Shown here piece after piece: positions 3,325 to 63,577 of a DNA stretch of 64,000 bases. A program made the position numbers and the translations under genes. The notes under the pieces are model-generated. The model did not search any database. It saw nothing but the letters and a program-made list of their open reading frames with translations, and was not told the DNA's origin. The DNA is from an uncultured virus (IMG/VR IMGVR_UViG_3300025387_000001) (taxonomy: Duplodnaviria; Heunggongvirae; Uroviricota; Caudoviricetes): IMG/VR virus record IMGVR_UViG_3300025387_000001; one strand, 5' to 3'. Each line of letters opens with the position of its first letter. Positions within the stretch are counted from its first letter, which is position 1.

Positions 3325-4331
3325 TGTTAGGTAATAGTCCTTTTTATCATCAACTAACACGTAAAGCAGTTGTTCTTTTTGGACGGTTATTTGATGATAT
3401 AACATTGGTTAGAAAGAATGATCAGACAGGTGTAGAAACAAATCGTTTTTTGGTACCTATTATCTATTCACCAAAAGAGAAGATGGTTACTCGTATTTTT
3501 TCCGATCCAGATTTACTACGTCAGGTACAAACAATTCTGCCTAGAATGGGTTTTGAGATTACTGGTATATCTTATGATGCATCCAGAAAACAAAACTCAC
3601 TTTTAAAAGCAGCAAGATCCAATACCACAACCCATGTTACAGCATCTTATATGGGTGTTCCTTATGATATTAATTTTCAATTGAATATCTATACCCGTAA
3701 TATAGACGACGGTACTCAGATTGTAGAACAGATTTTACCATTCTTTAATCCAGATTTCACGGTATCTACTAATATGATACCAGACCTTGGCGCATTGAAA
3801 GATGTTCCTATCATTCTCAATAATGTTTCAAATGATATCCAGTATGAAGGTGATTTTGATTCGGTAAGATATGTTAATTGGACACTTAACTTTACCATGA
3901 AGATGTATTACTATGGCCCAATCTCTTATCCAAAGATCATTCGTACCGTTTATGCAAATATTTACAACAATCCAAGTTTGCAAACTGGATATATCACAAG
4001 GATAAATACTTCAAATACTAGTGGAACGTTTAAGATAAACGATACTGTTTTCCAGGGTAATAGTTATCATACTGCTACTGCGACAGGTATTGTGGTTAGT
4101 TTCAATAACACACTAAATCAGTTGGTAATAGGTGCTACACAAGGATCGTTCAAAGTCAATAATACTATCCATGCGGTTTCCACCAATGGTGTTTGTACCT
4201 TGGATTCATTTTATGTAGATCCACTAAAGTTGGCGCAAATTACTATTACACCTGATCCTATTAATGCTGATCCAACAGACGATTACGGATATAATATTGA
4301 TATTATAGAGTGGCCTGAAACAGAAACATAA
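3324..4331 (+). CDS. gp15: Tail sheath stabiliser/terminator gp15
   Basis: FYHQLTRKAVVLFGRLFDDI, LPRMGFEITGISYDASRK, QIVEQILPFFNP. Confidence 0.93.
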   Translation: MLGNSPFYHQLTRKAVVLFGRLFDDITLVRKNDQTGVETNRFLVPIIYSPKEKMVTRIFSDPDLLRQVQTILPRMGFEITGISYDASRKQNSLLKAARSNTTTHVTASYMGVPYDINFQLNIYTRNIDDGTQIVEQILPFFNPDFTVSTNMIPDLGALKDVPIILNNVSNDIQYEGDFDSVRYVNWTLNFTMKMYYYGPISYPKIIRTVYANIYNNPSLQTGYITRINTSNTSGTFKINDTVFQGNSYHTATATGIVVSFNNTLNQLVIGATQGSFKVNNTIHAVSTNGVCTLDSFYVDPLKLAQITITPDPINADPTDDYGYNIDIIEWPETET

Positions 4332-8579: not shown

Positions 8580-9462
8580 ATACCAATCAAATCCTAATTT
8601 ACCTAACGAACAGTATAGGCACGCTTTTACACAAAGAGAATTGGAAGAATACCAAAAATGTGTAGATGATCCCGTCTATTTTGCCAAAAAATATATCCGA
8701 ATCATTAATGTTGATAAAGGCCTTATACCTTTTGATATGTGGGACTTTCAAGAGGATATGGTCAATACATTTCATAACAATCGTTTCTCTATCTGTAAAC
8801 TACCACGACAGGTTGGTAAATCAACTACCAGCGTAGCATACATTCTCCATCAGGTATTGTTCAATGAACAGTTTGTAGTTGCCATCCTCGCTAACCGTGC
8901 GCCTACGGCCCGTGAGTTGCTAGGAAAACTAAAACTGGCCTTTGAGTATTTACCTATGTTTCTCAAACAAGGTATCAAGGAATGGAATAAAGGTTCTATC
9001 TGGTTAGCAAATGGTTCAAGAGTTCTTGCCGATTCTACAAGCGGATCATCAGTTCGCGGTTTCTCGTTCAACCTAATATTTTTGGACGAGTTCGCGTTCG
9101 TCCCTAATAATATTGCGGAAGAGTTCTTTATGTCTACATATCCTACCATTTCTTCTGGACAAAAATCAAAAGTAGTCATTGTTTCAACTCCAAACGGTAT
9201 GAACCTGTTTTATAAGCAATGGATGGATGCTGTTGAAGGTAGGTCAGATTATAAGCATATTGAAATCCACTGGTCATTGGTTCCAGGAAGAGACCAGAAA
9301 TGGGCCGAGCAAACCATTCGTAACACCAGCCAGCGACAGTTTGACCAAGAGTTTGGTTGTGTAGCCGGAGATACCATCGTAGAGATAAGAAACAAAGACA
9401 CCGGTGAAATACAAAAAATAACTATGGAAAAACTTTATGAAATGATGGATGTGAGTTCATAG
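8560..9462 (+). CDS. gp17: Terminase large subunit gp17, N-terminal ATPase half fused to a 34-aa N-intein
   Basis: Walker A PRQVGKST, Walker B LIFLDEFAF, VSTPNG; ends FDQEFG|CVAGDTIVEIR... Confidence 0.95.
   Translation: MARLPFRYQSNPNLPNEQYRHAFTQRELEEYQKCVDDPVYFAKKYIRIINVDKGLIPFDMWDFQEDMVNTFHNNRFSICKLPRQVGKSTTSVAYILHQVLFNEQFVVAILANRAPTARELLGKLKLAFEYLPMFLKQGIKEWNKGSIWLANGSRVLADSTSGSSVRGFSFNLIFLDEFAFVPNNIAEEFFMSTYPTISSGQKSKVVIVSTPNGMNLFYKQWMDAVEGRSDYKHIEIHWSLVPGRDQKWAEQTIRNTSQRQFDQEFGCVAGDTIVEIRNKDTGEIQKITMEKLYEMMDVSS
9358..9459 (+). mobile_element. Split intein, N-fragment (34 aa)
   Basis: Block A CVAGDTIVEIRNKDTGEIQKITMEKLY followed by a stop. Confidence 0.9.
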
Positions 9463-9491
9463 GATTACTAAATAGGTATAGGAGGTATCCT

Positions 9492-10130
9492 ATGGCCTGT
9501 GTTTATAAGATAACAAGAAACGATGGATTAGAATATATTGGCATTACCAATAATCTGAAGCGTCGGATACAACAACATATCCGATCACCAAGATTTTCGG
9601 TCGGAATAAAACACACCGAAATACTATTTGAAAGTGAATATAAAAACTGTGAAGATGCTGAAGAAATATATATCACCGTTTTTGATACATATAAAAATGG
9701 ATTGAATACAACATTACACGGTAAAGGTAATCATTATGATAGTTCAAGGTTCAATACTCTTGGATATGTTTATAGCAAAGAGAGTAGGGAAAGAATGAGT
9801 AAAGCGAAAGATGGATTTGTGCCGTGGAACAAAGGTAAATCCGGTTATTGGACACCCAACGAAGAATGGATTGATAAACACAGATTCATAGGTTCCGATA
9901 ATCCAAAATCCATACTAAACGAAGATTTGGTTAGGGAGATTATAGAAGATTTTATATCTAGTCCGAAGATAGATAATGTGGGTCAAATACAAAAAAACGG
10001 TAAACCTATGTCTTATATGTGGGCCTATTGCTTACAAAAAGCGCCTCAACACAATATGACTCCACAGGCTATTAGAAGATTGTTAGAAAAGAAAAGTTGG
10101 AAAAATGTTTGGAAAGAATACGAAGTTTGA
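9492..10130 (+). CDS. GIY-YIG homing endonuclease located between the split-intein halves
   Basis: CVYKITRNDGLEYIGITNNLKRRIQQH, NUMOD3-like YSKESRERMSKAK...PWNKGK. Confidence 0.88.
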   Translation: MACVYKITRNDGLEYIGITNNLKRRIQQHIRSPRFSVGIKHTEILFESEYKNCEDAEEIYITVFDTYKNGLNTTLHGKGNHYDSSRFNTLGYVYSKESRERMSKAKDGFVPWNKGKSGYWTPNEEWIDKHRFIGSDNPKSILNEDLVREIIEDFISSPKIDNVGQIQKNGKPMSYMWAYCLQKAPQHNMTPQAIRRLLEKKSWKNVWKEYEV

Positions 10131-24687: not shown

Positions 24688-25143
24688 ATGGAGTTTGCTT
24701 TGCGACCACCAGTTAAACTTGATGACCTAATGGAGGAATGGCATAAAGATTGTGCTATTGACTCCACTGAACCAGGCCTAGAACTAATTCGTATCTCATC
24801 TCTTCATGGTAAATACTTACATATTCTATCTCACCATAGAATGTTGGTTAAGAAGTTTACCAATGACTATAATAAAATGCGTCTCATTAAGTTCCAATAT
24901 TATCAAGGTGAACTTGATATGGAAGAACTGAAAGAGCGTGGATGGCAACCTAATGGTCGTCAAATCATAAAGCAAAATATACCAATCTACATGGACGCGG
25001 ACGAAGACCTAAATAATATGGTTCTTAAAAAAGTAGTTCACGAAGAAGTGGTAGAGTTTTGTACCTCCATTATAAAGGAACTAAACAGTAGAGTATATGC
25101 TCTCCGTGCCTTTATTGAATGGAAGAAAATGACGGATAGATGA
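24688..25143 (+). CDS. uvsY: Recombination mediator UvsY
   Basis: EEWHKDCAID...SLHGKYL...YYQGE...IEWKK; synteny with uvsW. Confidence 0.88.
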   Translation: MEFALRPPVKLDDLMEEWHKDCAIDSTEPGLELIRISSLHGKYLHILSHHRMLVKKFTNDYNKMRLIKFQYYQGELDMEELKERGWQPNGRQIIKQNIPIYMDADEDLNNMVLKKVVHEEVVEFCTSIIKELNSRVYALRAFIEWKKMTDR

Positions 25144-25151
25144 TAGGAAAG

Positions 25152-25232
25152 CCTAAATAGATGTAGGTCGCGGAGCGCCAACTCCCACCTACTCTAACGC
25201 TTTTACGGAGCATCAGCATGTCCTATTATATA
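25152..25232. repeat. Conserved structured leader cassette, copy 1
   Basis: CTAAATA..GTAGGT CGC GGAG-CGCCAA-CTCC C ACCTAC TCTAACGCT-TTTACGG-AGCATCAGC ATG. Confidence 0.85.
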
Positions 25233-25805
25233 TACGCCTATTTACGAGAAGATGGTTCACCTTACTATATTGGTAAAGGAAAAGGTCGCCGAGCTTGGCA
25301 TAACCATAATGCTTGTAATGCGAAGCCTCCCAAAGATAAAACTCGTATCATAATAATGGAATCCAACCTTACGGAAGTAGGTTCTCTTGCTTTAGAAAGA
25401 TTTTATATTCGTTGGTATGGAAAAATTTGTGATAATACGGGTGTTCTTAGAAATAAATCCGATGGCGGAGAAGGTGGTGTAATAAATTCTGGATGTTTCA
25501 GAAAAGGGCAATCTCCAGTATTCAAAGGTATGAAAATGCCTATACTATCAAAAAAGAAAAAAGAATATTGGGAAAAATGGAGAAAAGAAAATCCTGATTA
25601 TAGAAAAAAATGGAAAACCTATGAAAAGGTCGGGTATTCCATAGAAGCAAGAGAAAAAAGAGCAGAAGGTGCCAGAATACGTAACAAGATAAATATAAAC
25701 TGTCCTCATTGTGGTAAGTCAGGACAATTGGCAAATATGAAAAGATGGCATTTTGATAATTGTAAGGAATATGATGACTCATCTAGTATTGAAAAATGTA
25801 AATGA
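25218..25805 (+). CDS. GIY-YIG-like homing endonuclease with C-terminal Zn-finger
   Basis: [34 protein letters not shown]...NMKRWHFDNCK. Confidence 0.85.
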   Translation: MSYYIYAYLREDGSPYYIGKGKGRRAWHNHNACNAKPPKDKTRIIIMESNLTEVGSLALERFYIRWYGKICDNTGVLRNKSDGGEGGVINSGCFRKGQSPVFKGMKMPILSKKKKEYWEKWRKENPDYRKKWKTYEKVGYSIEAREKRAEGARIRNKININCPHCGKSGQLANMKRWHFDNCKEYDDSSSIEKCK

Positions 25806-28039: not shown

Positions 28040-28122
28040 CTAAATAATAATTGTAGGTCGCGGTTGGGGAACCCACCTACTCTAACACTCGGCAAGGAGT
28101 ATCAGCTATGTTCTATATTTAT
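28040..28122. repeat. Conserved structured leader cassette, copy 2
   Basis: CTAAATA..GTAGGT CGC GGTT-GGGG-AACC C ACCTAC TCTAACACTC-GGCAAG-GAGTATCAGC T ATG. Confidence 0.85.
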
Positions 28123-28596
28123 GCTTATCTAAGACAAGACGGAACTCCATATTACATTGGTAAAGGTAAAGAAAATCGTGCATGGTCTAAGCACGATAGA
28201 ATAAGATTGCCTAATGATGATAGAATTATTATAATGGAATCAAATTTAACAGAAATAGGATCCTTGGCTTTAGAGAGATTCTATATACGGTGGTATGGTA
28301 GAAAAGATAATGGAACAGGAATACTAAGAAATCTTACAAATGGTGGTGATGGTGTAGAAGGTAAAAGGGGAAAACAACGAAATCCTAATACATCAAACAT
28401 AACTAAATTATTGATAGAAAGAAATAAAAATAGATCCTATTTGTGGGAAATAACTTTTCCTGATGGACATAAAGAAATTATTAAAAATTTGGAACAATTC
28501 TGTTTTTGTCATAATTTACAAAGTTCAGGCTTGACAAGAGTGGCAAAAGGTGATAGGATTCATCATAAAAATTACAAAGCGAGAAAAATATTATGA
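28108..28596 (+). CDS. GIY-YIG-like homing endonuclease
   Basis: [47 protein letters not shown]. Confidence 0.85.
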
Positions 28597-29171
28597 CGGT
28601 AAAGAAAAAACGCAATCACTATGTAGATAACGAGAGGTTCTTAGCAGAGATTGTTGAGTATAAGAAGCAAGTGGTTATTGCCAAAGAACAAGGCCTTGAT
28701 AAACCACGGGTATCGGAATATATTGGCAAATGTATTTACTTGATTGCCGAGAACCTTTCGCATAAACCTCGTTTTATGAACTACTCGTTTCGTGATGAGT
28801 TGGTATCAGATGCTATTGAGAACTGTTTCCTATATTTTGATAACTTTAATCCTACCATTTCACAAAATCCTTTTGCTTACTTTACTCAAATCATTTACTA
28901 TGCCTTTCATAGAAGGATTAGTAAAGAAGAAAAAAATCGTTACATTATATACAAAAAATTCCAAGAAAGTGTCCTAGATACATCGGATGCAGCTTTAATG
29001 ATAGATCATGACGATCAGCACTTGATTTCCTCTACGATGTATGATAACCTAAACGAGTTCATAAAGAAGTTCGAGGGTCGTGAAGCGGAAAAGAAAGAGA
29101 AGCGAAAAGCGGCTAAAGAAGGACTAGATAAGTTTTTTGGAGAAGACGATGAAGGAAGAGAACCAGTTTGA
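28593..29171 (+). CDS. gp55: Late-transcription sigma factor gp55
   Basis: [46 protein letters not shown]. Confidence 0.95.
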
Positions 29172-29534: not shown

Positions 29535-29554
29535 ATGTTGAAAATCTAGGATTA

Positions 29555-29633
29555 CTAAATAGGTATTGTAGGTCGCGGACGGCCATCCCACCTACTCTAA
29601 TACTGTTTAGGAGTATCAGCATGACTATTTATT
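29555..29633. repeat. Conserved structured leader cassette, copy 3
   Basis: CTAAATA..GTAGGT CGC GGA-CGGCCA-TCC C ACCTAC TCTAATACT-GTTTAGG-AGTATCAGC ATGACTATTTA. Confidence 0.85.
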
Positions 29634-30139
29634 GTCCTCTATCCGAAGCACTTGGTATTAATTATAATACAAGTTCTGAATATGACACTGTATATGATAA
29701 TATATACGAACATATAATGTGTCGTATACCTGGATTTCCACATGATGAAATATCCAAAAAACTCATTTCCGAAAAAACAAAAGAATACTGGTCTTCATAT
29801 GAAGGACAGAAAAAGAAACTACGCCTTATAGAATGGAATCGTAAAACAAAATCAGAAGTTATGAAAAGAACTTGGAAAGAAAAACCGGAAAGTTTATATA
29901 GAGGCGGCCGGAAAAAAGGTTCTAAAGATTTGGAAAAAAGAAAAGAATCCGTTAGGAGAAAGCCTAGACAAATATTTGCGGATGGTGTAATATATAAAAA
30001 TATACACGAAGCATCAAAAGGATGTAATATATCAGTATCAGGTGTGAAAAAACGTTGTCAACACAATATTTATGGATGGAGATATATTAGTGGCGAAGAT
30101 AGCTCTTTTAACAGACACACATGCCGGTGTTCGGAATGA
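29621..30139 (+). CDS. NUMOD3/NUMOD1-type DNA-binding protein without a recognisable nuclease domain
   Basis: GFPHDEISKKLISE and DGVIYKNIHEASKGCNISVSGVKKRC; no GIY-YIG or HNH motif seen. Confidence 0.65.
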   Translation: MTIYCPLSEALGINYNTSSEYDTVYDNIYEHIMCRIPGFPHDEISKKLISEKTKEYWSSYEGQKKKLRLIEWNRKTKSEVMKRTWKEKPESLYRGGRKKGSKDLEKRKESVRRKPRQIFADGVIYKNIHEASKGCNISVSGVKKRCQHNIYGWRYISGEDSSFNRHTCRCSE

Positions 30140-31166
30140 TAACCCGGCGTTTCAGGATTATCAAAAGCGTTGTTTTGATTGGTTCTTCAGTCATATTGAC
30201 GCTATGGGCATTAGGTATGTTATACACCTTGGCGACATTTATGACCGCAGAAAATACATCAACTTCACCTCAGCAAGAAGATGCCGAGAAGATTTCCTTG
30301 ACCCGTTAGAAGATAGGTCAATAGAAACACATATTATACAGGGAAATCACGACTCATATCACAAGAATACCCACGAAGTAAATGCTCTAGATGAATTGGT
30401 TGTTAACCGTTATCAGTTCATTCATACCTATTCACTTCCTGAGTTGATCAATATAGATGGCCTTGATATACAGATCATGCCTTGGATCACAGATTCTAAC
30501 CGTGAACAGGCTATGGATGTTATCAGTCAACCACGGGCCGAGGTTCTTATGGGTCACCTAGAACTAAACGGTTTCACTATGCATAGAGGTTTGATATCAG
30601 ACCATGGGCTTGATCGTGTTACTTTTGATAAGTTTGATAAAGTTTACTCTGGGCATTATCATCATCGTTCCACTATTGGTAATGTATCTTATATCGGTGC
30701 TTTTGCTGAATATACCTGGCACGACTATGCCGATCCTCGTGGTTTCTCTGTGTTTGATACTGACACTAGAGAAATAGAGTTTATACAGAATCCTTATAAG
30801 ATGTTCCGTCTTGCTAAGTATGATGATGTGACCAATCCTGAGATTGTAGAAAAAATCCAAAACACGGACTTTTCCAAGTATAAGAATACTTATGTAAAGT
30901 TGATTGTAGTAAACAAGTCTAATCCTTATGCCTTTGATCTTCTCTTTGACTCCATCTATAAGGCAGGCCCTTTAGATATTACCGTTGTAGAAGATCCTTC
31001 GGTATTGCTTGAGAATGAAGATATGGACTCGGTTGATGAAGCAGAAGATACCTCCACAATCCTTTCCAAGTATATTGATGGGTTGACTTTGCCGGTGGAA
31101 TCTGCTAGAATGAAATCATTCATGTTAGACGTTTACAAAGAGTCATTGCAGGTAGAGACCATATGA
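30090..31166 (+). CDS. gp47: Recombination endonuclease subunit gp47 (Mre11/SbcD-like)
   Basis: TDTHAG, HLGDIYD, GNHD, GHLEL, SGHYH; GTG start after GGAG. Confidence 0.95.
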   Translation: MAKIALLTDTHAGVRNDNPAFQDYQKRCFDWFFSHIDAMGIRYVIHLGDIYDRRKYINFTSARRCREDFLDPLEDRSIETHIIQGNHDSYHKNTHEVNALDELVVNRYQFIHTYSLPELINIDGLDIQIMPWITDSNREQAMDVISQPRAEVLMGHLELNGFTMHRGLISDHGLDRVTFDKFDKVYSGHYHHRSTIGNVSYIGAFAEYTWHDYADPRGFSVFDTDTREIEFIQNPYKMFRLAKYDDVTNPEIVEKIQNTDFSKYKNTYVKLIVVNKSNPYAFDLLFDSIYKAGPLDITVVEDPSVLLENEDMDSVDEAEDTSTILSKYIDGLTLPVESARMKSFMLDVYKESLQVETI

Positions 31167-32884
31167 TTACCTTTCATAATGTAAAGTGGCGAAACTTTCT
31201 TTCGGCTGGTAACAACTGGACCGAGTTGGAGTTAGATACACACAAGAATACCTTAATCATGGGACACAATGGGTCAGGTAAATCCACATTTCTGGACGCC
31301 TTGACCTTTGTGTTGTTTGGTAAACCTTTTCGTAAGGTCAACAAAGGTAATGTCGTAAACTCTATCAATGGTAAGAACTGTGAGGTGGAGATTGAGTTTT
31401 CTGTTTCAAACAAACGGTACAAGGTTATTCGTGGTGCGAAGCCAAACATCTTCGAGATTTATTGTGAAGGTAAAATGGTCAACCAGGATGCAGCGGCCAA
31501 GGACTATCAAGGGTATCTAGAGAAGCATATTCTAAAGATGAACTTTAAGTCCTTTACACAGGTAGTTATTCTTGGTTCTGCATCGTTTGTACCTTTCATG
31601 CAACTATCACCTGGTGACCGTAGAACGGTTATTGAAGACCTGTTGGACATTCAAATCTTTTCTTCTATGTCTAATGTGGTCAAGAACAGACTACAAATCA
31701 ACCGTGAAGGACTAGAGAAGAATAGGATTACTTTAACTAGTAAAAATGAAAATAAAACTTACATTGAGCAGACTTTAGAGTCCTTAAAGTCAAATAATGA
31801 AACTAAACTTTCACTTTTACGAGAGAAAGAACAGGAACTAAAAGATAGTTTAGTTTCCGAGCAATCAATCATTTCCGACCTAGAGAAGAAAAGAGATGAA
31901 CTCCTTGAACAAGGTATTGATACCTCGGTACTAAGGACAAAGTATAGTAAGTTGGTCGGTTTCAAGGCCAAGATGGAGGGAAACATTGACCGTATTCACA
32001 AAGATAATACATTCTTTGAGTCAAATGATACTTGTCCCACTTGTAGGCAGGGTATCGATGAGACTTTCAAAAAAGAAACGATTGGATCTAACCAAAGTAA
32101 GATTGCTGAAATTAATGAAGGACTAAATAAGGCTGACGAACAGATTAGTGCCGTCCTGGAAGAAATAGAGAAGATTGATGAAGTTCTCCAACGCCTTAAT
32201 GGAGTTAAGATGGATCTTACATCTAGTAGGTCTTCCTATAAGCATATTGATAATAATCTGTCTCAAATTATGGTTCAGATTGAAACGTTCGCACTATCTG
32301 ACAAAACTACCCAAGAGTCGGAACGACAACTCGTTCAAGTCCAACATGATATTTCCTCCCTCGAAGAAGAAAAGAAGGCCCTTCTAGATGAACGCCAATA
32401 TGTGGACTTGGCCACTACACTACTCAAAGATGGTGGAATCAAGACAAAAATCATTAAACAGTATCTACCTATCATTAATAAACATATCAATAAGTACCTC
32501 GCTAAACTTGGTTTTTTTGTCAACTTTAATATTAATGAGTCATTCGAGGAATCAATCAAGTCAAGATACCGAGACGAGTTCTCCTACCACAACTTCTCTG
32601 AAGGTGAGAAGTTAAGAATAGACTTGGCCATTCTCCTTACATGGAGGCAGATTGCCAAGATGAAAAACTCCGTGAATGTAAATATACTTGTGTTTGATGA
32701 GATCCTTGACCGTGCTATGGACGCCAGTGGTGTAGACGAATTTATTCGTATAATGTGGGATATGGGTGATAATGGTTCTAATATATTTGTTATCTCACAT
32801 AAAGACGGAATGATAGATAGATTCCAGAGAACAGTAAAATTTCAGAAAGTTAAAAATTTTAGTGTATTAGAAAAGGAAAATTAA
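31163..32884 (+). CDS. gp46: Recombination endonuclease subunit gp46 (Rad50/SbcC-like)
   Basis: [13 protein letters not shown] hook, [19 protein letters not shown]. Confidence 0.96.
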
Positions 32885-33447
32885 TGTTTTATGTTTATGC
32901 ATATTTAAGGGAGGATGGAACACCTTACTATATTGGTAAAGGTAAAAAACTCCGTGCGTGGACTAAAGATATTAAAAGGTATAAACATATATCACTTCCT
33001 AAAAATAATAATCGTATAGTTATAATGGAATCCAATCTTACGGAAGTTGGCGCACTGGCGTTAGAAAGGTTCTATATTCGTTGGTATGGACGTAAGGATA
33101 ATGGAACAGGTATATTGAGAAATTTAACAGATGGTGGAGACGGTGTTTCTGGTCAAATACAATCCGAAGAAACTAAAGAAAAAAGAAGACAAAAACATTT
33201 AGGACAAAAAAGAATAAATGTAGATAACTTTAAAGGTCCTAAGTCAAAAGAACATGCAAAAAATATAGGAAAATCTCACGCCAAAACATATTCTGTTATT
33301 GATCCCATAGGAAATAAAATAATCATACACAACATGAGGCAATATTGTTTAGATAATGAATTACATCAAGGTAATATGATACAGGTTGCCAAAGGTAATA
33401 GAATAAGTCATAAAGGATACAAATCTGTCTTGACAAAAGACTTATAA
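32884..33447 (+). CDS. GIY-YIG-like homing endonuclease (no leader cassette)
   Basis: [37 protein letters not shown]; paralogue of 25218 and 28108. Confidence 0.85.
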
Positions 33448-39286: not shown

Positions 39287-39323
39287 CCATATATAATGAG
39301 AAATCTTGAAAGGAATAGTTCTA

Positions 39324-40574
39324 ATGGCTAAGAAGATTGACCGCACCGAGTTCCTCGATAAAATCCGTTTCGAGTTCGGTGCAATCCGTTCAATCACCCG
39401 TCCGCAAGTCCTCCAAATCTGTGAGAAATACGGACTCGACAAACCTAACTGGATACTAAATGACGTATCCCGTAAACTTGGTCGTGGTATCTATTCTCTT
39501 CCTGAACACGGAACTTCTGGTGTAACATTAGGTGACTTAAAAGAAATTAATAAGTCCTGGAGAAAAAAAGAAACAAAAACACCAGCACCTAAAGCGGCAC
39601 CTTCTCCTGCTGTTGCCGTTGCTATGGTGGCACCTTCGGTTGTTTCTACTAACGCCGAGGTTTCACTTGTTCCTGAAAAGGCACTCGGTTACGTTCCATT
39701 CGGCCATTTCACGGACGTCCGTGCTATCATCAAATCCAAAAAGTTCTATCCAACATATATCACCGGCCTTTCTGGCAACGGTAAAACTATGATGGTGGAA
39801 CAGGTATGTGCCCAAGAAAAGAGAGAATGTGTCCGTGTTAATATCACTATTGAGACCGACGAGGACGACCTTATCGGTGGTTTCCGTCTTATCAATGGCG
39901 AGACCGTATGGCAAGACGGTCCTGTTATTACTGCTATGTCTCGCGGTGCCTTACTATTACTGGACGAGGTTGACCTCGGTTCCAACAAGCTTATGTGCCT
40001 CCAGCCAGTCCTCGAAGGTAAAGCAATTTACCTAAAAAAGACTAACCGTGTGGTCCATCCTGCGGCAGGTTTCAACATTGTTGCCACTGCCAATACTAAA
40101 GGCAAAGGTTCTGATGATGGCCGCTTTATCGGCACCAACGTTATGAATGAAGCGTTCCTTGAACGTTTTAGCATCACAATGGAACAAGAATATCCTGCCG
40201 CTAAGGTTGAGACAAAAATCCTCAACAATGTTTTACAGGCTTCTGGTATCACCGCAACGGAGTTTGTTGATAAGTTGGTTACTTGGGCAGATGTTATCCG
40301 TAAGTCCTTCTTCGAGGGTGCTTTATCTGAAATCATCTCAACCCGCCGTCTTGTCCATATCTGCGAGGCATATTCCATCTTCAACCAAAACAAGGTAAAA
40401 GCTATTGAGTTATGCCTCAACCGTTTTGACGTTGATACAAAGAATGCCTTTTTAGAGTTGTATCGTAAAGTGGATGAAACCGCCGATCCTGTTGTTGGTG
40501 CTACAGGTGCTACTGGTGAAGTTGAGTATCCGGGTGCCGTTGGTGCTAATGGTGCCTCTGGTCCTACTTTCTAA
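39324..40574 (+). CDS. CobS-like/MoxR-type AAA+ ATPase
   Basis: GLSGNGKT, TDEDDLIGG, LLLDEVD, ATANTKG, NEAFLERF, STRRL. Confidence 0.92.
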   Translation: MAKKIDRTEFLDKIRFEFGAIRSITRPQVLQICEKYGLDKPNWILNDVSRKLGRGIYSLPEHGTSGVTLGDLKEINKSWRKKETKTPAPKAAPSPAVAVAMVAPSVVSTNAEVSLVPEKALGYVPFGHFTDVRAIIKSKKFYPTYITGLSGNGKTMMVEQVCAQEKRECVRVNITIETDEDDLIGGFRLINGETVWQDGPVITAMSRGALLLLDEVDLGSNKLMCLQPVLEGKAIYLKKTNRVVHPAAGFNIVATANTKGKGSDDGRFIGTNVMNEAFLERFSITMEQEYPAAKVETKILNNVLQASGITATEFVDKLVTWADVIRKSFFEGALSEIISTRRLVHICEAYSIFNQNKVKAIELCLNRFDVDTKNAFLELYRKVDETADPVVGATGATGEVEYPGAVGANGASGPTF

Positions 40575-40586
40575 AATAGAGGAATA

Positions 40587-40663
40587 CTAAATAGACATGT
40601 AGGTCACGGACGGCAATCCCACCTACTCTAATCTCGGCTAGGAGACCAGCATGTCTATTTATA
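40587..40663. repeat. Conserved structured leader cassette, copy 4
   Basis: CTAAATAGACAT GTAGGT CAC GGA-CGGCAA-TCC C ACCTAC TCTAATCTC-GGCTAG-GAGACCAGC ATGTCTATTTA. Confidence 0.88.
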
Positions 40664-41229
40664 CCCCTTACACCTACCTTATCGGTTGGTCCATCCACAA
40701 TAAATGGTATTACGGAGCAGAATACGGGAGTGTGGTAAAAGTTGCCAACCCTTCTAATCTTTGGAATACCTACTTCACTTCTTCCTCAGAGGTAAAAAAG
40801 TTTAGACAAGAATACGGAGAACCTGATGTTATAGAGATCCGTCGGACATTCATAACAGAAAAAGAATGTCGAGAATGGGAAGATAAAGTTCTAACCAAAT
40901 TGGATGTTATCAAGTCAGACCGTTGGTTGAATAAGAGACAAGGAAGTTCTTGTAAGTTTATTTGTGAAGGACATTCTGAGGAGTCAAAAGAAAAAATGCG
41001 AGGCCCTAGAGGACCTCAAAGAGAGGAATGGATAACAAATAGATTTGCTAACCGAGTTCCTGCTAAAACAACGGCCCTAAAAGGTCGCCCTTCACCTATC
41101 AAAGGAAAGACCATAAAGAAAAGAGAAAAGTTATTGTGTCCTGTATGTAATAGAATGATTGATGTATCAAACTATGTGAAATGGAAACATGGAGAAAGTT
41201 GTAATGAAAACAAGAGAAATCATTTCTAA
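40651..41229 (+). CDS. Putative homing endonuclease (divergent GIY-YIG type) with NUMOD3 and Zn-finger
   Basis: PYTYLIGW...WYYG, YFTSS, WEDKVL, WLN, HSEESKEKM, CPVC. Confidence 0.75.
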   Translation: MSIYTPYTYLIGWSIHNKWYYGAEYGSVVKVANPSNLWNTYFTSSSEVKKFRQEYGEPDVIEIRRTFITEKECREWEDKVLTKLDVIKSDRWLNKRQGSSCKFICEGHSEESKEKMRGPRGPQREEWITNRFANRVPAKTTALKGRPSPIKGKTIKKREKLLCPVCNRMIDVSNYVKWKHGESCNENKRNHF

Positions 41230-44759: not shown

Positions 44760-44956
44760 TGAGTAAGAAAATCTATGATGTTCTGTTAATGGCATTTACA
44801 GGTGCCACTATTGTGGCATTTGTTTATGTGATTGCTAACAATGTTTCTCTGCATGAACTGTATATCCAAAAATGTAAAGACGGCGGCGGTGTTGCCGTTG
44901 TAGCAGCAAATGGATATGTTTGTATTAACCCTGGCGCAATTATTGAGGTGGACTAA
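44759..44956 (+). CDS. Small membrane protein
   Basis: One hydrophobic helix, C...C. Confidence 0.5.
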   Translation: MSKKIYDVLLMAFTGATIVAFVYVIANNVSLHELYIQKCKDGGGVAVVAANGYVCINPGAIIEVD

Positions 44957-45252
44957 TGAGTATGATTGGACATAACCAACAGCAAAGGTCGGTTCAAGGT
45001 CTTACAGATGAAGATCGTAAGATCCTCCGTAAGGCAGTTATGGAGATGAATGACTCCATGACCCGTGTTGGTGCCGAACGTGAACTACAAAAAGAAACCA
45101 CAAATGAGGTTGCCGATAAACTCGGTATTGATAAGAAGTTGTTCCGCCGTATGTCGAGAGCATACTTCCGTGCCAACTTCAAAGAAGAGGTTCAAGAGAA
45201 TACGGACTTTGAAGAGTTTTATACCACTGTTATGGAAAAGACGGCGAGTTGA
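44956..45252 (+). CDS. DsbA-like phage dsDNA-binding protein
   Basis: EMNDSMTRVGAERELQKE...LGIDKKLFRRMSRAYF. Confidence 0.7.
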   Translation: MSMIGHNQQQRSVQGLTDEDRKILRKAVMEMNDSMTRVGAERELQKETTNEVADKLGIDKKLFRRMSRAYFRANFKEEVQENTDFEEFYTTVMEKTAS

Positions 45253-45265
45253 AAACTTCGGAATG

Positions 45266-45345
45266 CTAAATAGTTGTAGGCCACGGTGTTACCAGCACCT
45301 GCCTACTCTAACGCTAACTGGAGCGCCAGCCTATGACTATTTATC
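45266..45345. repeat. Conserved structured leader cassette, copy 5
   Basis: CTAAATA..GTAGGC CAC GGTG-TTACCAG-CACC T GCCTAC TCTAACGCT-AACTGG-AGCGCCAGC CT ATGACTATTTA. Confidence 0.85.
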
Positions 45346-45896
45346 GTCGTATCTACGAACAACACCACGGACCTATTCCTATTGATGAAAATGGAAGAAC
45401 TTATGATATCCATCACATAGATGGTAATCGTAAGAATAATGACCCTAAAAATCTTGTTGCTTTATCTGTAAAAGACCATTATAATATACATCACCGTCAA
45501 GGAGATTGGTATGCCTGCCTTTTGATATCCAAAGAAATGAATATGTTGGCAGAAGAAAAGTCCGAGATTTCACGGAGAGTGGCCTTAGAAAGGTCCATGA
45601 ATGGTACTAATCCTCTTTCGGGCCCTGAAATGAATAGAAAAATGTTATGTGAAGGAATACATCCAACACAACAGAAAAAACAATGTGAATGTTGTGGTAA
45701 AGAAGTAACACTTCCTGTATATGGTAGATATCATGGTAAAAAATGTGGAATGAAAAGACCAAAAAGAGAATGGAAATATGAAGATGTGAAATGTCCGCAT
45801 TGCGGATTAGTTGGTTCCGGTGGTAATATGAAAAGATACCACTTTGATAACTGTAAATATAGGATGATAAATGATGGAAGATTTTCTTTGGGTTGA
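45333..45896 (+). CDS. HNH homing endonuclease with C-terminal Zn-fingers
   Basis: DIHHIDGNRKNNDPKNLVALSVKDHYNIH; CECCG; CPHCG...NMKRYHFDNCK. Confidence 0.9.
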   Translation: MTIYRRIYEQHHGPIPIDENGRTYDIHHIDGNRKNNDPKNLVALSVKDHYNIHHRQGDWYACLLISKEMNMLAEEKSEISRRVALERSMNGTNPLSGPEMNRKMLCEGIHPTQQKKQCECCGKEVTLPVYGRYHGKKCGMKRPKREWKYEDVKCPHCGLVGSGGNMKRYHFDNCKYRMINDGRFSLG

Positions 45897-46809
45897 AAGG
45901 TATAGACCCACAAAAGTAATAGAATGTATTTTACCAGATAGAATAAAGTCTGTGTTTCAGGATTATGTGAATGATGGTAACGTACCTAACCTAATGCTTA
46001 CAGGACCAGCAGGTTGTGGTAAAACAACTATTGCTCGGGCATTATGCGTTGAGTTAGGACTCAACCATCTCTTTATCAATAGTTCTGATGAACGTGGTAT
46101 TGATATGTTGAGAACCAAGATTAAAGGTTATGCCTCAACCATCTCTCTTACAGGTGGTCGTAAGGTTATCATCCTTGATGAGGCTGACTATCTTACACCA
46201 GAGGCCCAGGCGGGACTTCGTGGGGCTATTGAGGAGTTTAGTGACAACTGCTCCTTTATCTTCACCTGTAACTTTAAGGCAAGGTTGATTGATGCTCTAC
46301 ATTCTCGATGTGCCGTTGTTGACTTCTCACTCAAAGGTGATGAGAAGGCCAAGATGGCAATGGAGATGTTTAAAAGATTAAAAACAATATTAGTAACAGA
46401 GGGAATTGAATACGATGCCAACGTTTTGGGAAAGATTGTATCGCGGTATTTCCCAGATTACCGCCGAACTCTCAACGAGATACAACGTTATTCTTCTGGC
46501 GGAACTATTGATGCTGGTGTTCTTGCTCAAGTTGACAATGTAAGAAAACTGGAAGAACTTATCAAGGCACTAAAGGAGAAAGACTTTGGTACTATGCGCA
46601 AGTGGGTTGTGAATAACTCCGATGTTGATCCAGCAAGGATTTATCAAGATATTTACGATGGAATGAACACATTTCTTAAACCTGAATCCATCCCATATGT
46701 GGTCATTACAATTGCAAAATACCAGTATCAACAGGCCTTCGTTTCTAGTCAGGAAATAAATCTAGTCGCAGCATTAACAGAGATTATGGTTGAGGCGGAG
46801 TTTATGTGA
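45871..46809 (+). CDS. gp44: Clamp loader large subunit gp44
   Basis: LWVERYRP, GPAGCGKTT, IILDEADYL, LHSRC. Confidence 0.95.
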   Translation: MMEDFLWVERYRPTKVIECILPDRIKSVFQDYVNDGNVPNLMLTGPAGCGKTTIARALCVELGLNHLFINSSDERGIDMLRTKIKGYASTISLTGGRKVIILDEADYLTPEAQAGLRGAIEEFSDNCSFIFTCNFKARLIDALHSRCAVVDFSLKGDEKAKMAMEMFKRLKTILVTEGIEYDANVLGKIVSRYFPDYRRTLNEIQRYSSGGTIDAGVLAQVDNVRKLEELIKALKEKDFGTMRKWVVNNSDVDPARIYQDIYDGMNTFLKPESIPYVVITIAKYQYQQAFVSSQEINLVAALTEIMVEAEFM

Positions 46810-62253: not shown

Positions 62254-62580
62254 ATGACTGACTATACAGACCTTGTCCATATATTGCGACAACTTAACCT
62301 AAAATATGGTGATATGGCGGCCGCCGCTATTGAGGCGCAAGCAAAGCGTATTGAGGAACTAGAGGCTTCTATTGATAAAAACGACGAATGGGCAAAGTGG
62401 TTTATTGAGAAAACTGACGCCCGTATTGTTGAACTAGAGGCAGCGTTAAAGCCGTTTGCTGATAAGGCAACAGCTTGCGAACAAAGATACTCTGACTTCG
62501 CCCCAGAGGATGACCGCACGTTTGCTTTTACGCTTGGCGACCTACGCCGAGCCCGTAAGGTATTGGGAGAGAAGGAATGA
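62254..62580 (+). CDS. Small paralogous-array protein
   Basis: AAAIEAQAKRIEELE, RIVELEAALKPFA, GDLRRARKVLGEKE. Confidence 0.7.
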   Translation: MTDYTDLVHILRQLNLKYGDMAAAAIEAQAKRIEELEASIDKNDEWAKWFIEKTDARIVELEAALKPFADKATACEQRYSDFAPEDDRTFAFTLGDLRRARKVLGEKE

Positions 62581-62855
62581 CTGACTACTCAGACATTGTG
62601 TGGGTGTTACGGCGGAAAGCGCAATTTGATGTTCATCCATTGTCTTTGAACGCCCAGATAATGAATAAATCCGCCGACGCTATTGAGGCGCAAGCAAATA
62701 GGATTGCTGAACTAGAAGCGGCGCTGGAACCGTTTGCTGAACAATCCGAATTTATTGATGATGACAATGACTCTTTACTCAACGGGTTATGTTCACCTAT
62801 AATGAGTAAAAAAGATTTTTTTACCGCCAGTAAGGTATTGGGAGAAAAGGAATGA
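62577..62855 (+). CDS. Small paralogous-array protein
   Basis: ADAIEAQANRIAELEAALEPFA, KVLGEKE. Confidence 0.7.
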   Translation: MTDYSDIVWVLRRKAQFDVHPLSLNAQIMNKSADAIEAQANRIAELEAALEPFAEQSEFIDDDNDSLLNGLCSPIMSKKDFFTASKVLGEKE

Positions 62856-63130
62856 CTGAGATAACATTGCTTGAACGACTGCGCCTTGGACATACTACAA
62901 GCGCAATGAAAATGCTTGGAGAAGCCGCCGACACTATTGAAGCACAATCCTCGGAAATAGATTTTTGGAAAGACCGTATGCGTGAAGCACTCAAAACGAT
63001 AAAAGAAAATGTCGACCGAATTGCTGAACTGGAAAGAGAACTGGATAAACATAGGCAGGCGTTAGTGTTTATACAATCTAAGGCACAAGACATTCTAAGA
63101 CCAATACCATTCCAAGATGAGGAGAACTAA
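62852..63130 (+). CDS. Small paralogous-array protein
   Basis: AADTIEAQ, RIAELE. Confidence 0.65.
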   Translation: MTEITLLERLRLGHTTSAMKMLGEAADTIEAQSSEIDFWKDRMREALKTIKENVDRIAELERELDKHRQALVFIQSKAQDILRPIPFQDEEN

Positions 63131-63131
63131 G

Positions 63132-63377
63132 ATGAAGGTATCTGTTGACCTGGATATTGAACTAAACGATAGCCAAAAAGATGAAATCGTAGTGGAGTCA
63201 CTAAAAGACGCCTATCGTATCAACTGTGAGCCTGATAAGTATGATTGTTCGGATGAGACGATTCCTCCGGATGATGAGTTCCTAAATGCTCTTGATTTGG
63301 TTATAAACTACTTTTCTACCAATGACCAATACCAAGAATGGATAGTAAAGAAGATGGAATTGAGGGAAAAGAAATGA
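63132..63377 (+). CDS. Hypothetical protein (similar to 63574)
   Basis: SD GGAG; IVVESLKDAY...QYQEWI. Confidence 0.55.
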   Translation: MKVSVDLDIELNDSQKDEIVVESLKDAYRINCEPDKYDCSDETIPPDDEFLNALDLVINYFSTNDQYQEWIVKKMELREKK

Positions 63378-63577
63378 GTGACGAACAGGTTGATGCCTTA
63401 GAAGAAGAACTTGCGGTAGCTAAGGCCCGTATTGCTGAACTAGAGGCGGCGCTGAAACCGTTTGCTGAAAAATACACTGAGTTCTTAGATGACGGCTATA
63501 GCAGCTTAGACCACGCATTTGTTTCAGTTGGCGACCTACGCCAAGCTCGTAAGGTATTAGGAGAGAAGAAAGAATGA
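63374..63577 (+). CDS. Small paralogous-array protein
   Basis: ARIAELEAALKPFA, GDLRQARKVLGEKKE. Confidence 0.7.
   Translation: MSDEQVDALEEELAVAKARIAELEAALKPFAEKYTEFLDDGYSSLDHAFVSVGDLRQARKVLGEKKE

Follow-up and report, generated by a model that had tools for sequence, protein, structure and literature searches.

A 5′ cassette of phage homing endonuclease genes with a fold probably maintained on the antisense strand: a candidate gp55-driven antisense RNA

Introduction

Why should a short element at the head of a small phage nuclease gene pair better on the strand opposite to the message, and why should codons 2-4 of that gene spell a late-promoter-like box on the same opposite strand? These questions are raised by positions 40587-40663 of a 64,000-nt stretch of DNA, hereafter the window, from an uncultured virus of the Caudoviricetes (IMG/VR record IMGVR_UViG_3300025387_000001). 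The window comes from a cyanophage-type T4-like genome, and the segment is one of five ~80-nt cassette copies that head free-standing homing endonuclease genes (HEGs). Among the selfish genes of T4-like phages, homing endonucleases are the principal ones, and they are known to be controlled by plus-strand hairpins, late promoters and autorepression. An earlier note on this DNA had read the cassette as the source of a structured antisense RNA, made with the phage late sigma factor gp55 and complementary to the ribosome binding site (RBS). That interpretation is partly supported here: the two points at which computation could have overturned it, namely loss of the G-U strand bias in a larger alignment and free synonymous variation of the first codons, both came out in its favour. 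The cassette is conserved and covarying, and the phage encodes a gp55 homologue.

Results

Five copies of one cassette

The copies sit 10-130 nt past the stop of a core gene and extend into the first HEG codons. Read on the plus strand, the cassette begins with CTAAATA, 2-5 nt, the hairpin TGTAGGYCRC..YRCCTAC and a T, and continues with a stem opening on CTAA, a loop bearing the Shine-Dalgarno (SD) sequence, the second stem arm ending in CAG, a C, and ATG nnT ATT TAT. In copy 4, the segment in question, the parts are as follows.

40587..40593, plus strand: late-promoter motif CTAAATA, predicted to drive the HEG 4 mRNA
40599..40626, minus strand: hairpin P2 (plus strand GTAGGT..ACCTAC; minus strand GUAGGU..ACCUAC)
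40628..40649, minus strand: hairpin P3 (plus strand CTAATCTC-loop-GAGACCAG; minus strand CUGGUCUC/GAGAUUAG)
40656..40663, minus strand: late-promoter-like TATAAATA in HEG 4 codons 2-5
40597..40650, minus strand: predicted antisense RNA core with two hairpins, minimum free energy (MFE) -20.1 kcal/mol, z -2.65; putative start near 40650 and putative 3′ end

Searched with a minus-strand covariance model (R1), the window contains exactly five copies, scoring 65-79 bits, and the next best match reaches 17.5 bits.

25150..25232, minus strand: copy 1, 78.7 bits, between uvsY and the HEG at 25218-25805; minus-strand motif degenerate
28040..28125, minus strand: copy 2, 65.1 bits, before the HEG at 28108-28596; minus-strand ATAAATA at 28116-28122
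29555..29635, minus strand: copy 3, 78.3 bits, before the HEG at 29621-30139; minus-strand ATAAATAG at 29626-29632
40586..40665, minus strand: copy 4, full match to R1, 73.5 bits, E 6.4e-15
45263..45347, minus strand: copy 5, 76.4 bits, between dsbA and the HEG at 45333-45896; minus-strand ATAAATAG at 45338-45344

The perfect inverted repeat previously described for copy 4 is real, yet it measures 12 bp and not 11 (arms TAAATAGACATG at 40588-40599 and CATGTCTATTTA at 40650-40661); the minus strand of this copy does read TATAAATA-GACAT-GCTGG, as had been stated. The plus strand of its P3 hairpin bears the SD AGGAG (40640-40644), and the edge of the minus-strand loop is the anti-SD CUCC. We could likewise confirm that the plus-strand mismatches of the SD stem are exclusively A.C in all five copies (arms CTAACGCT/AGCATCAG in copy 1, CTAACACTC/GAGTATCAG in copy 2, CTAATACT/AGTATCAG in copy 3, CTAATCTC/GAGACCAG in copy 4 and CTAACGCT/AGCGCCAG in copy 5), and that on the minus strand these become stems of 8-9 bp within an identical two-hairpin fold (5/5). 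The five cores of 54-56 nt reach an MFE of -18.7 to -24.1 kcal/mol on the minus strand (z -1.67 to -3.61) and of -13.4 to -20.3 kcal/mol on the plus strand (z -0.71 to -1.91).

As a side observation, the 5′ edge of copy 3 (TAGGATTACTAAATAGGTAT, 29547-29584) is duplicated at 9460-9497 before an ordinary open reading frame (ORF; start 9492, 212 aa). There, the duplicated TAGGATTACTAAATAGGTAT is directly followed by an SD, so the upstream boundary of the cassette coincides with a standard late promoter.

Homologous cassettes in other viral sequences

Homologues were collected with two IMG/VR pattern scans, each returning at least 122 loci, and all homologue counts given below rest on these listed matches. 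Scan 1 fixed TGTAGG, CCTACTCTAA and GGAG; 115 of its 122 listed loci, together with the five window copies, pass the cassette regular expression and give 79 distinct sequences, while the seven excluded loci have neither promoter nor hairpin. Scan 2 fixed TAAATA, TGTAGG and ATGnnTATTTAT and left the SD stem and the junction free. With a looser regular expression, both scans yield 128 distinct cassettes among the matches listed (copy 5 is identical to locus L018 and is represented by it). The distance between cassette and start codon is the same in all 128, the blocks TGTAGG, CCTACTCTAA and CAGC are near-invariant, and five large viral genomes (112-283 kb) hold 2-4 copies each. The nearest record (G001, 24.6 kb) contains no cassette copy. 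At one further IMG/VR locus (L041, 301-350, minus strand), both hairpins and the SD are kept and CAG is followed by AAAAAGAATTG, without ATG or M-x-I-Y; this may be an orphan or decayed copy.

A blastn search with the cassette against 50,697 phage records gave no match at E <= 1e-3 or at E <= 10, at the low power of 84-101-nt queries. Rfam returned nothing at gathering score in the whole window and, at 40500-40750, a chance snoRNA match alone (E 1.1). Full-text searches of the literature, outside Millard et al. 2010 and its supplements, gave no published description of the cassette. Readings as a ribozyme, a tRNA-like element or a guide RNA (HEARO-like) were dropped, as the seemingly conserved 'CUGAUG' changes in the manner of a stem and the encoded nucleases are small HEGs of the usual kind.

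The minus strand carries the fold

On a single MAFFT alignment of the 128 cassettes, RNAalifold assigns -21.55 kcal/mol to the minus strand versus -9.42 to the plus strand. A dedicated minus-strand alignment (A2) gives -21.65 kcal/mol and 18 pairs, 10 of which show double compensatory changes. Over its 2296 base-pair cells, standard pairs make up 97.6% on the minus strand and 87.8% on the plus strand. Shuffling the partners lowers the paired fraction to 82.7 +/- 0.4%, with none of 500 shuffles matching the observed value, and sliding them lowers it to 29-46%. The covariation score is 0.474 versus 0.175 after shuffling, and cells changed on both sides number 386 versus 98 +/- 14. The outer helix of P2 is 99.9% paired and the inner one 95.1%, with covarying pairs that include UA 105 / CG 23.

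The wobble pairs are equally one-sided. The cells of A2 divide into 1992 Watson-Crick, 250 that are G.U on the minus strand and hence A.C on the plus strand, 25 of the reverse kind, and 29 others; the bias noted earlier from the window copies thus persists in the larger alignment, with 250 minus-strand against 25 plus-strand G.U cells. The contrary cells fall mostly in loop-closing pairs, where the alignment is least certain. When each distinct stem haplotype is counted once, P3 has 48 minus-strand G.U and no minus-strand A.C in 29 haplotypes, P2 has 25 and 2 in 48 haplotypes, and together there are 73 G.U on the minus strand versus 2 on the plus strand. At the level of single pairs, pair 3 of P3 is G.U on the minus strand in 128/128; pair 4 (26-55) is AU in 64, GU in 51 and GC in 11; and pair 5 (27-54) is CG in 47, UG in 32, UA in 26 and AU in 19, without any A.C. 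An isolated pair, 66-90, reads GC in 52, AT in 39, GT in 37 and AC in none.

The same positions look poor on the plus strand, where the SD stem has A.C at pair 3 in 128/128 and at pair 4 in 52/128 (the rest being A-U or G-C), and C.A or A.C at pair 5 in 33/128. In the window copies it forms only 4-5 bp, and a stable SD-sequestering plus-strand hairpin of the T4 type was seen neither in the 128 cassettes nor in the window copies. Minus-strand pairing, covariation and G.U bias instead describe a stable stem-loop structure on the antisense strand, as antisense regulators of the IS10 RNA-OUT type have. The scan design is not the cause of this bias, since neither scan fixed the 3′ arm of P3 or the interior of P2, and scan 2 left the 5′ arm unconstrained as well. 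Given the minus-strand pairing, the covariation and the one-sided wobbles, the cassette fold has very probably been selected on the minus strand.

The first codons are constrained as nucleotides

As had been reported, TATTTA lies in the first codons of copy 4 (ATG TCT ATT TAT, MSIY), copies 3 and 5 (ATG ACT ATT TAT, MTIY) and copy 2 (ATG TTC TAT ATT TAT, MFYIY), and copy 1 is degenerate at this site (ATG TCC TAT TAT ATA TAC). We scored the offset and codons in the 79-cassette set, which was not selected for TATTTAT, and took as background the codon use in the remainder of the same ORFs. TATTTAT stands at the fixed offset in 56/79 cassettes. Isoleucine codon 3 is ATT in 58 of 70 cases (background 44.5%, binomial p 4e-11), tyrosine codon 4 is TAT in 69 of 69 (background 74.5%, p 1.5e-9), and codon 2 ends in T in 72 of 78 (background 36%). 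In the 35 cassettes of the CTAAATA class, TAT is used in 30/30 although its T faces an unpairable C (p 1.5e-4), which speaks against pairing with the upstream arm as the sole reason for TAT. Codons 2-4 are under nucleotide-level constraint, and the minus strand of these codons reads ATAAATA. Synonymous variation of these codons is not free, although TATATAT takes the place of TATTTAT in 10/79 cassettes and copy 1 is degenerate.

Among 116 N-terminal fragments, 23 were assigned to GIY-YIG, 10 to HNH, 8 to HNH_3, 13 to NUMOD3 only and 62 to no family. M-x-I-Y heads GIY-YIG, HNH, HNH_3 and NUMOD3 proteins and is not a family signature; the earlier note had seen no obvious need for an 'IY' start in the HNH and NUMOD proteins. 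A minus-strand CTAAATA is impossible in the HEG frame because it would require TAG, and ATAAATA is the closest allowed form. The paralogous HEG at 32884 had been said to lack TATTTA; this is true of its codons 2-4, but the hexamer does occur at 32902-32907 (codons 7-8, A-Y-L).

Late-promoter motifs in the window

The plus strand of the window holds 22 CTAAATA motifs (about 8-9 expected) and the minus strand none (about 4-7 expected); for TAAATA the counts are 52 and 21. Nearly all genes of the region are on the plus strand, and the counts are consistent with late boxes being apparently avoided on the antisense strand. HEG starts account for four of the eight minus-strand ATAAATA sites. On the plus strand, ATAAATAG at 4328, 8115 and 13091 precedes ORFs. 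Each of the five window copies has a late-promoter motif immediately before its HEG. In the homologous cassettes, TAAATA lies 1-5 nt before TGTAGG in 73/79, 9-10 nt upstream in 2 and is missing in 4, and ATAAATA/TATAAATA serves as the upstream box in about half (37/78).

Discussion

A possible cis-antisense RNA over SD and start codon

The cassette could be a portable control module with two faces, one per strand, joined to the opening four codons of free-standing HEGs. The plus-strand late promoter (CTAAATA or TATAAATA) would start the nuclease mRNA at the foot of P2, with the SD following. On the minus strand, codons 2-4 (nnT ATT TAT) read NATAAATA, a putative gp55-type late-promoter box. 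Its transcript would start 5-6 nt after the box, at the G before CUG (near 40650 in copy 4), and an RNA starting on that G would begin with a hairpin P3′ carrying the anti-SD CUCC at its loop edge. A second, G+C-rich hairpin (P2′) would come next, followed by the U-rich complement of the plus-strand promoter. By position, the predicted RNA (40597-40650) lies opposite the SD at 40640-40644 and adjoins the ATG at 40651. It would be perfectly complementary to the 5′ untranslated region (UTR), SD and AUG of the nuclease mRNA, and duplex formation would repress translation. A possible second effect is polymerase collision between promoters ~75 bp apart. Besides, the antisense RNA of one copy might act on other copies, since TGTAGG and CCTACTCTAA hardly vary. 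Transcription from the embedded box, the RNA ends and the repression of the nuclease are what we infer from these sequence patterns, and we would give roughly an even chance (about 0.5) to the reading that a gp55-driven cis-antisense RNA of ~55-75 nt over SD and AUG limits nuclease translation.

Several points weigh against this reading. The homologues are related, so p-values and cell counts overstate independence, although the pattern recurs at several separate pairs. The wobble asymmetry fits single-stranded DNA of the minus strand as well as RNA of that strand. ATAAATA is not enriched on the plus strand of the window (9 observed, 13-18 expected) and the enriched late form is CTAAATA, which leaves the activity of ATAAATA in this phage uncertain. 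In 10/79 cassettes the box is replaced by TATATAT, and these, like copy 1, still keep minus-strand-biased stems. Finally, a simple scan found no canonical intrinsic terminator after P2′ on the minus strand; the U-rich tract 3-5 nt past the P2′ stem is the complement of the plus-strand promoter (UAUUUAG or UAUUUAU).

Other explanations for the cassette

The hairpins might instead act as a translational mask on the plus strand, as in T4 I-TevI, segB or Aeh1 mobE, a type of control that is described as established for T-even HEGs (PMC2988022) and that could coexist with an antisense RNA. On early or middle read-through RNA, the promoter TAAATAG would pair with CTATTTA of codons 2-4 in an outer stem (P1), close a three-way junction and hide the AUG, while late transcripts, starting past the 5′ arm, would be translated; the TATTTA codons would then serve pairing and not a promoter. 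The earlier note had offered such an outer stem as its alternative, and it receives weak support: P1 is a perfect 12 bp in copy 4 and forms in RNAfold runs of copies 3-5, and in the 58 cassettes with both motifs the inward complementarity gives a mean cognate run of 1.12 versus 0.67 +/- 0.09 after shuffling (0/2000 shuffles). That inward signal could equally reflect a lineage-specific promoter context common to two convergent promoters, however, and the corresponding outward covariation was not found (0.53 vs 0.60). In most cassettes, P1 would be a 6-8-bp A/U stem closing a 55-nt multiloop, and TAT is kept in 30/30 CTAAATA-class cassettes with its T opposite C. Moreover, the SD stem, just 4-5 bp on the plus strand, lies wholly downstream of the predicted late start, and late transcripts retain both of its arms; the loss of one inhibitory arm in late transcripts holds for the weak P1 and not for the SD stem. 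The mask leaves the minus-strand selection of P2 and P3 unexplained, and we regard it as unlikely to be the principal role of the cassette.

A second explanation, which we likewise consider improbable, accepts the minus-strand fold and takes the embedded box as incidental: the fold would act as single-stranded DNA in replication, recombination or homing repair, or within a longer antisense transcript that starts deeper in the HEG, like CfrI of a cyanophage (see below). DNA hairpins likewise tolerate G.T wobbles, and the fold is kept in box-less cassettes (the 10/79 with TATATAT, plus copy 1). The annotated 5′ end of CfrI is 57 nt inside F-CphI, not at codons 2-4, and P1 is able to form solely in a molecule that holds both arms. 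This explanation nevertheless leaves the ATT and TAT constraint and the fixed spacing to the P3′ stem unaccounted for, and the constant distance from cassette to start codon in all 128 listed homologues speaks against it. We know of no T4-type process that uses such a hairpin pair at HEG 5′ ends, which we also count against it.

That the cassette is instead a promoter-plus-RBS module of recent spread, or an operator of double-stranded DNA, without any selected RNA fold is very improbable, even though several blocks (TGTAGG, CCTACTCTAA and CAGC) are near-invariant and I-TevI is described as binding an operator that overlaps its own late promoter (PMC2988022), because a protein-bound duplex predicts neither compensatory double changes at 10/18 pairs, with 386 both-side cells against 98 +/- 14, nor wobble intermediates on one strand only, and because service to at least four unrelated nuclease families argues against a common protein operator.

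Relation to known antisense RNAs and HEG hairpins

The closest working analogue of the proposed antisense RNA is RNA-OUT of IS10/Tn10, described as a 69-nt antisense RNA whose promoter lies inside the transposase gene, which blocks ribosome binding and causes multicopy inhibition in trans (PMC5006887). As in IS10, the target is the enzyme gene of a mobile element, the opposite strand would encode a small structured RNA complementary to the translation initiation region, and the promoter, here a putative box, would lie within the beginning of the target gene. The two are not homologous in sequence or structure, however, and the cassette differs from IS10 in its phage host, in gp55 late-type boxes instead of sigma-70 promoters, and in an RNA with two hairpins that is common to unrelated nuclease families and whose expression and effect are predicted only. 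Further analogues are P22 sar and the convergent promoters of phage 186.

Closer in host type is CfrI of Synechococcus phage S-PM2, reported as an antisense RNA across psbA and F-CphI (PMC2984593, PMC5931967). Like the predicted cassette RNA, CfrI, as these reports present it, is encoded by a T4-like cyanophage and lies antisense across the 5′ end of a free-standing HEG and the end of the upstream gene. We rejected homology between the two, as the S-PM2 genome (NC_006820) holds no pattern match and the psbA/F-CphI spacer, which contains a terminator and a TATAAATA box, lacks the TGTAGG..CCTAC hairpin. CfrI is also longer (~200-225 nt, with the annotated start 57 nt inside the ORF, compared with a predicted ~55-75 nt) and is tied to psbA, whereas none of the fetched cassette loci matched a psbA C-terminal probe, a weak test with a short probe.

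HEGs of T-even phages and Aeh1 (I-TevI, -II, -III, segB, mobE) are described with a late promoter and RBS-sequestering hairpins (PMC2988022), and the 'fractured gene' HEGs of the Global Ocean Sampling (GOS) data with TATAAATA-bearing 5′ UTR hairpins (PMC2677866). The cassette resembles both, as far as these accounts go, in its late promoter directly upstream, in a conserved hairpin around the RBS and in a module that travels with the endonuclease. Those accounts place the hairpins on the mRNA strand, with one arm missing from late transcripts, whereas the SD stem of the cassette lies with both arms past the late start and has, in all probability, been selected on the opposite strand. Identity with the GOS hairpin was rejected, the gp41-1 sequence in the supplement of PMC2677866 being a different element.

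Genomic setting of the cassettes

The genes recognised around the cassettes are as follows.

24688-25143: uvsY
25218-25805: HEG downstream of copy 1
28108-28596: HEG downstream of copy 2
28593-29171, plus strand: gp55-type late sigma factor gene (phrog_234, late sigma transcription factor, E 1e-55)
29621-30139: HEG downstream of copy 3
30072-32884: gp47- and gp46-like nucleases
39306-40574: CobS-like AAA protein
40651..41229, plus strand: HEG 4, 192 aa, SegE-type GIY-YIG-like (phrog_314 homing endonuclease; PF19835 at E 7e-4, which is below cutoff)
44956-45252: dsbA
45333-45896: HEG downstream of copy 5, I-TevIII-like HNH
45871-46809: gp44

Nucleotide similarity to cultured phages was found only with two Synechococcus phages (74% over 425 nt), and tblastn with HEG 4 and HEG 5 matched only distant HEGs of non-cyanophage T4-like phages.

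All five cassette-headed HEGs overlap, with their 3′ end, the called start of the next gene: by 53 nt a DNA helicase-family gene (25753-25805), by 4 nt gp55 (28593-28596), by 68 nt the gp47-like gene (30072-30139), by 41 nt an ORF of unknown function (41189-41229) and by 26 nt gp44 (45871-45896). Similar overlaps of 6-69 bp are described for metagenomic HEG loci (PMC2677866). The HEGs at 25218-25805, 28108-28596 and 32884-33447 are paralogous (phrog_15526; 64-78% nucleotide identity over ~240 nt). The last of them has no cassette, and it looks translationally coupled, as its start codon shares bases with the stop codon of the gp46-like gene (TAATG, 32881-32886).

Two repeat regions lie elsewhere in the window. 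At its left edge (4-111), collagen-like repeats with a 9-nt period (GGN NNN NNN, Gly-X-Y) probably belong to a structural or fibre protein, and at 62320-63571 several diverged direct repeats of 44-61 nt, coding for a ...IAELEAALKPFAE...-like motif, suggest a repetitive coiled-coil protein.

Implications

Taken further, and more tentatively than the antisense reading itself, the cassettes might represent a large, unnamed family of gp55-driven antisense RNAs, carried in a portable 5′ cassette that unrelated HEG families of uncultured T4-like phages have acquired and acting in cis and, through the invariant blocks, in trans as a copy-number-sensing governor. If this is true, such a governor would restrain nuclease translation to a level at which the selfish gene is tolerated, as a phage counterpart of the multicopy inhibition of IS10. 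It would also explain the identical first four codons in nucleases of different folds. A conserved antisense RNA inside a mobile cassette would thus add a new layer to the control of homing endonucleases in T4-like phages, and would be among the few small RNAs of lytic phages that are supported by covariation.

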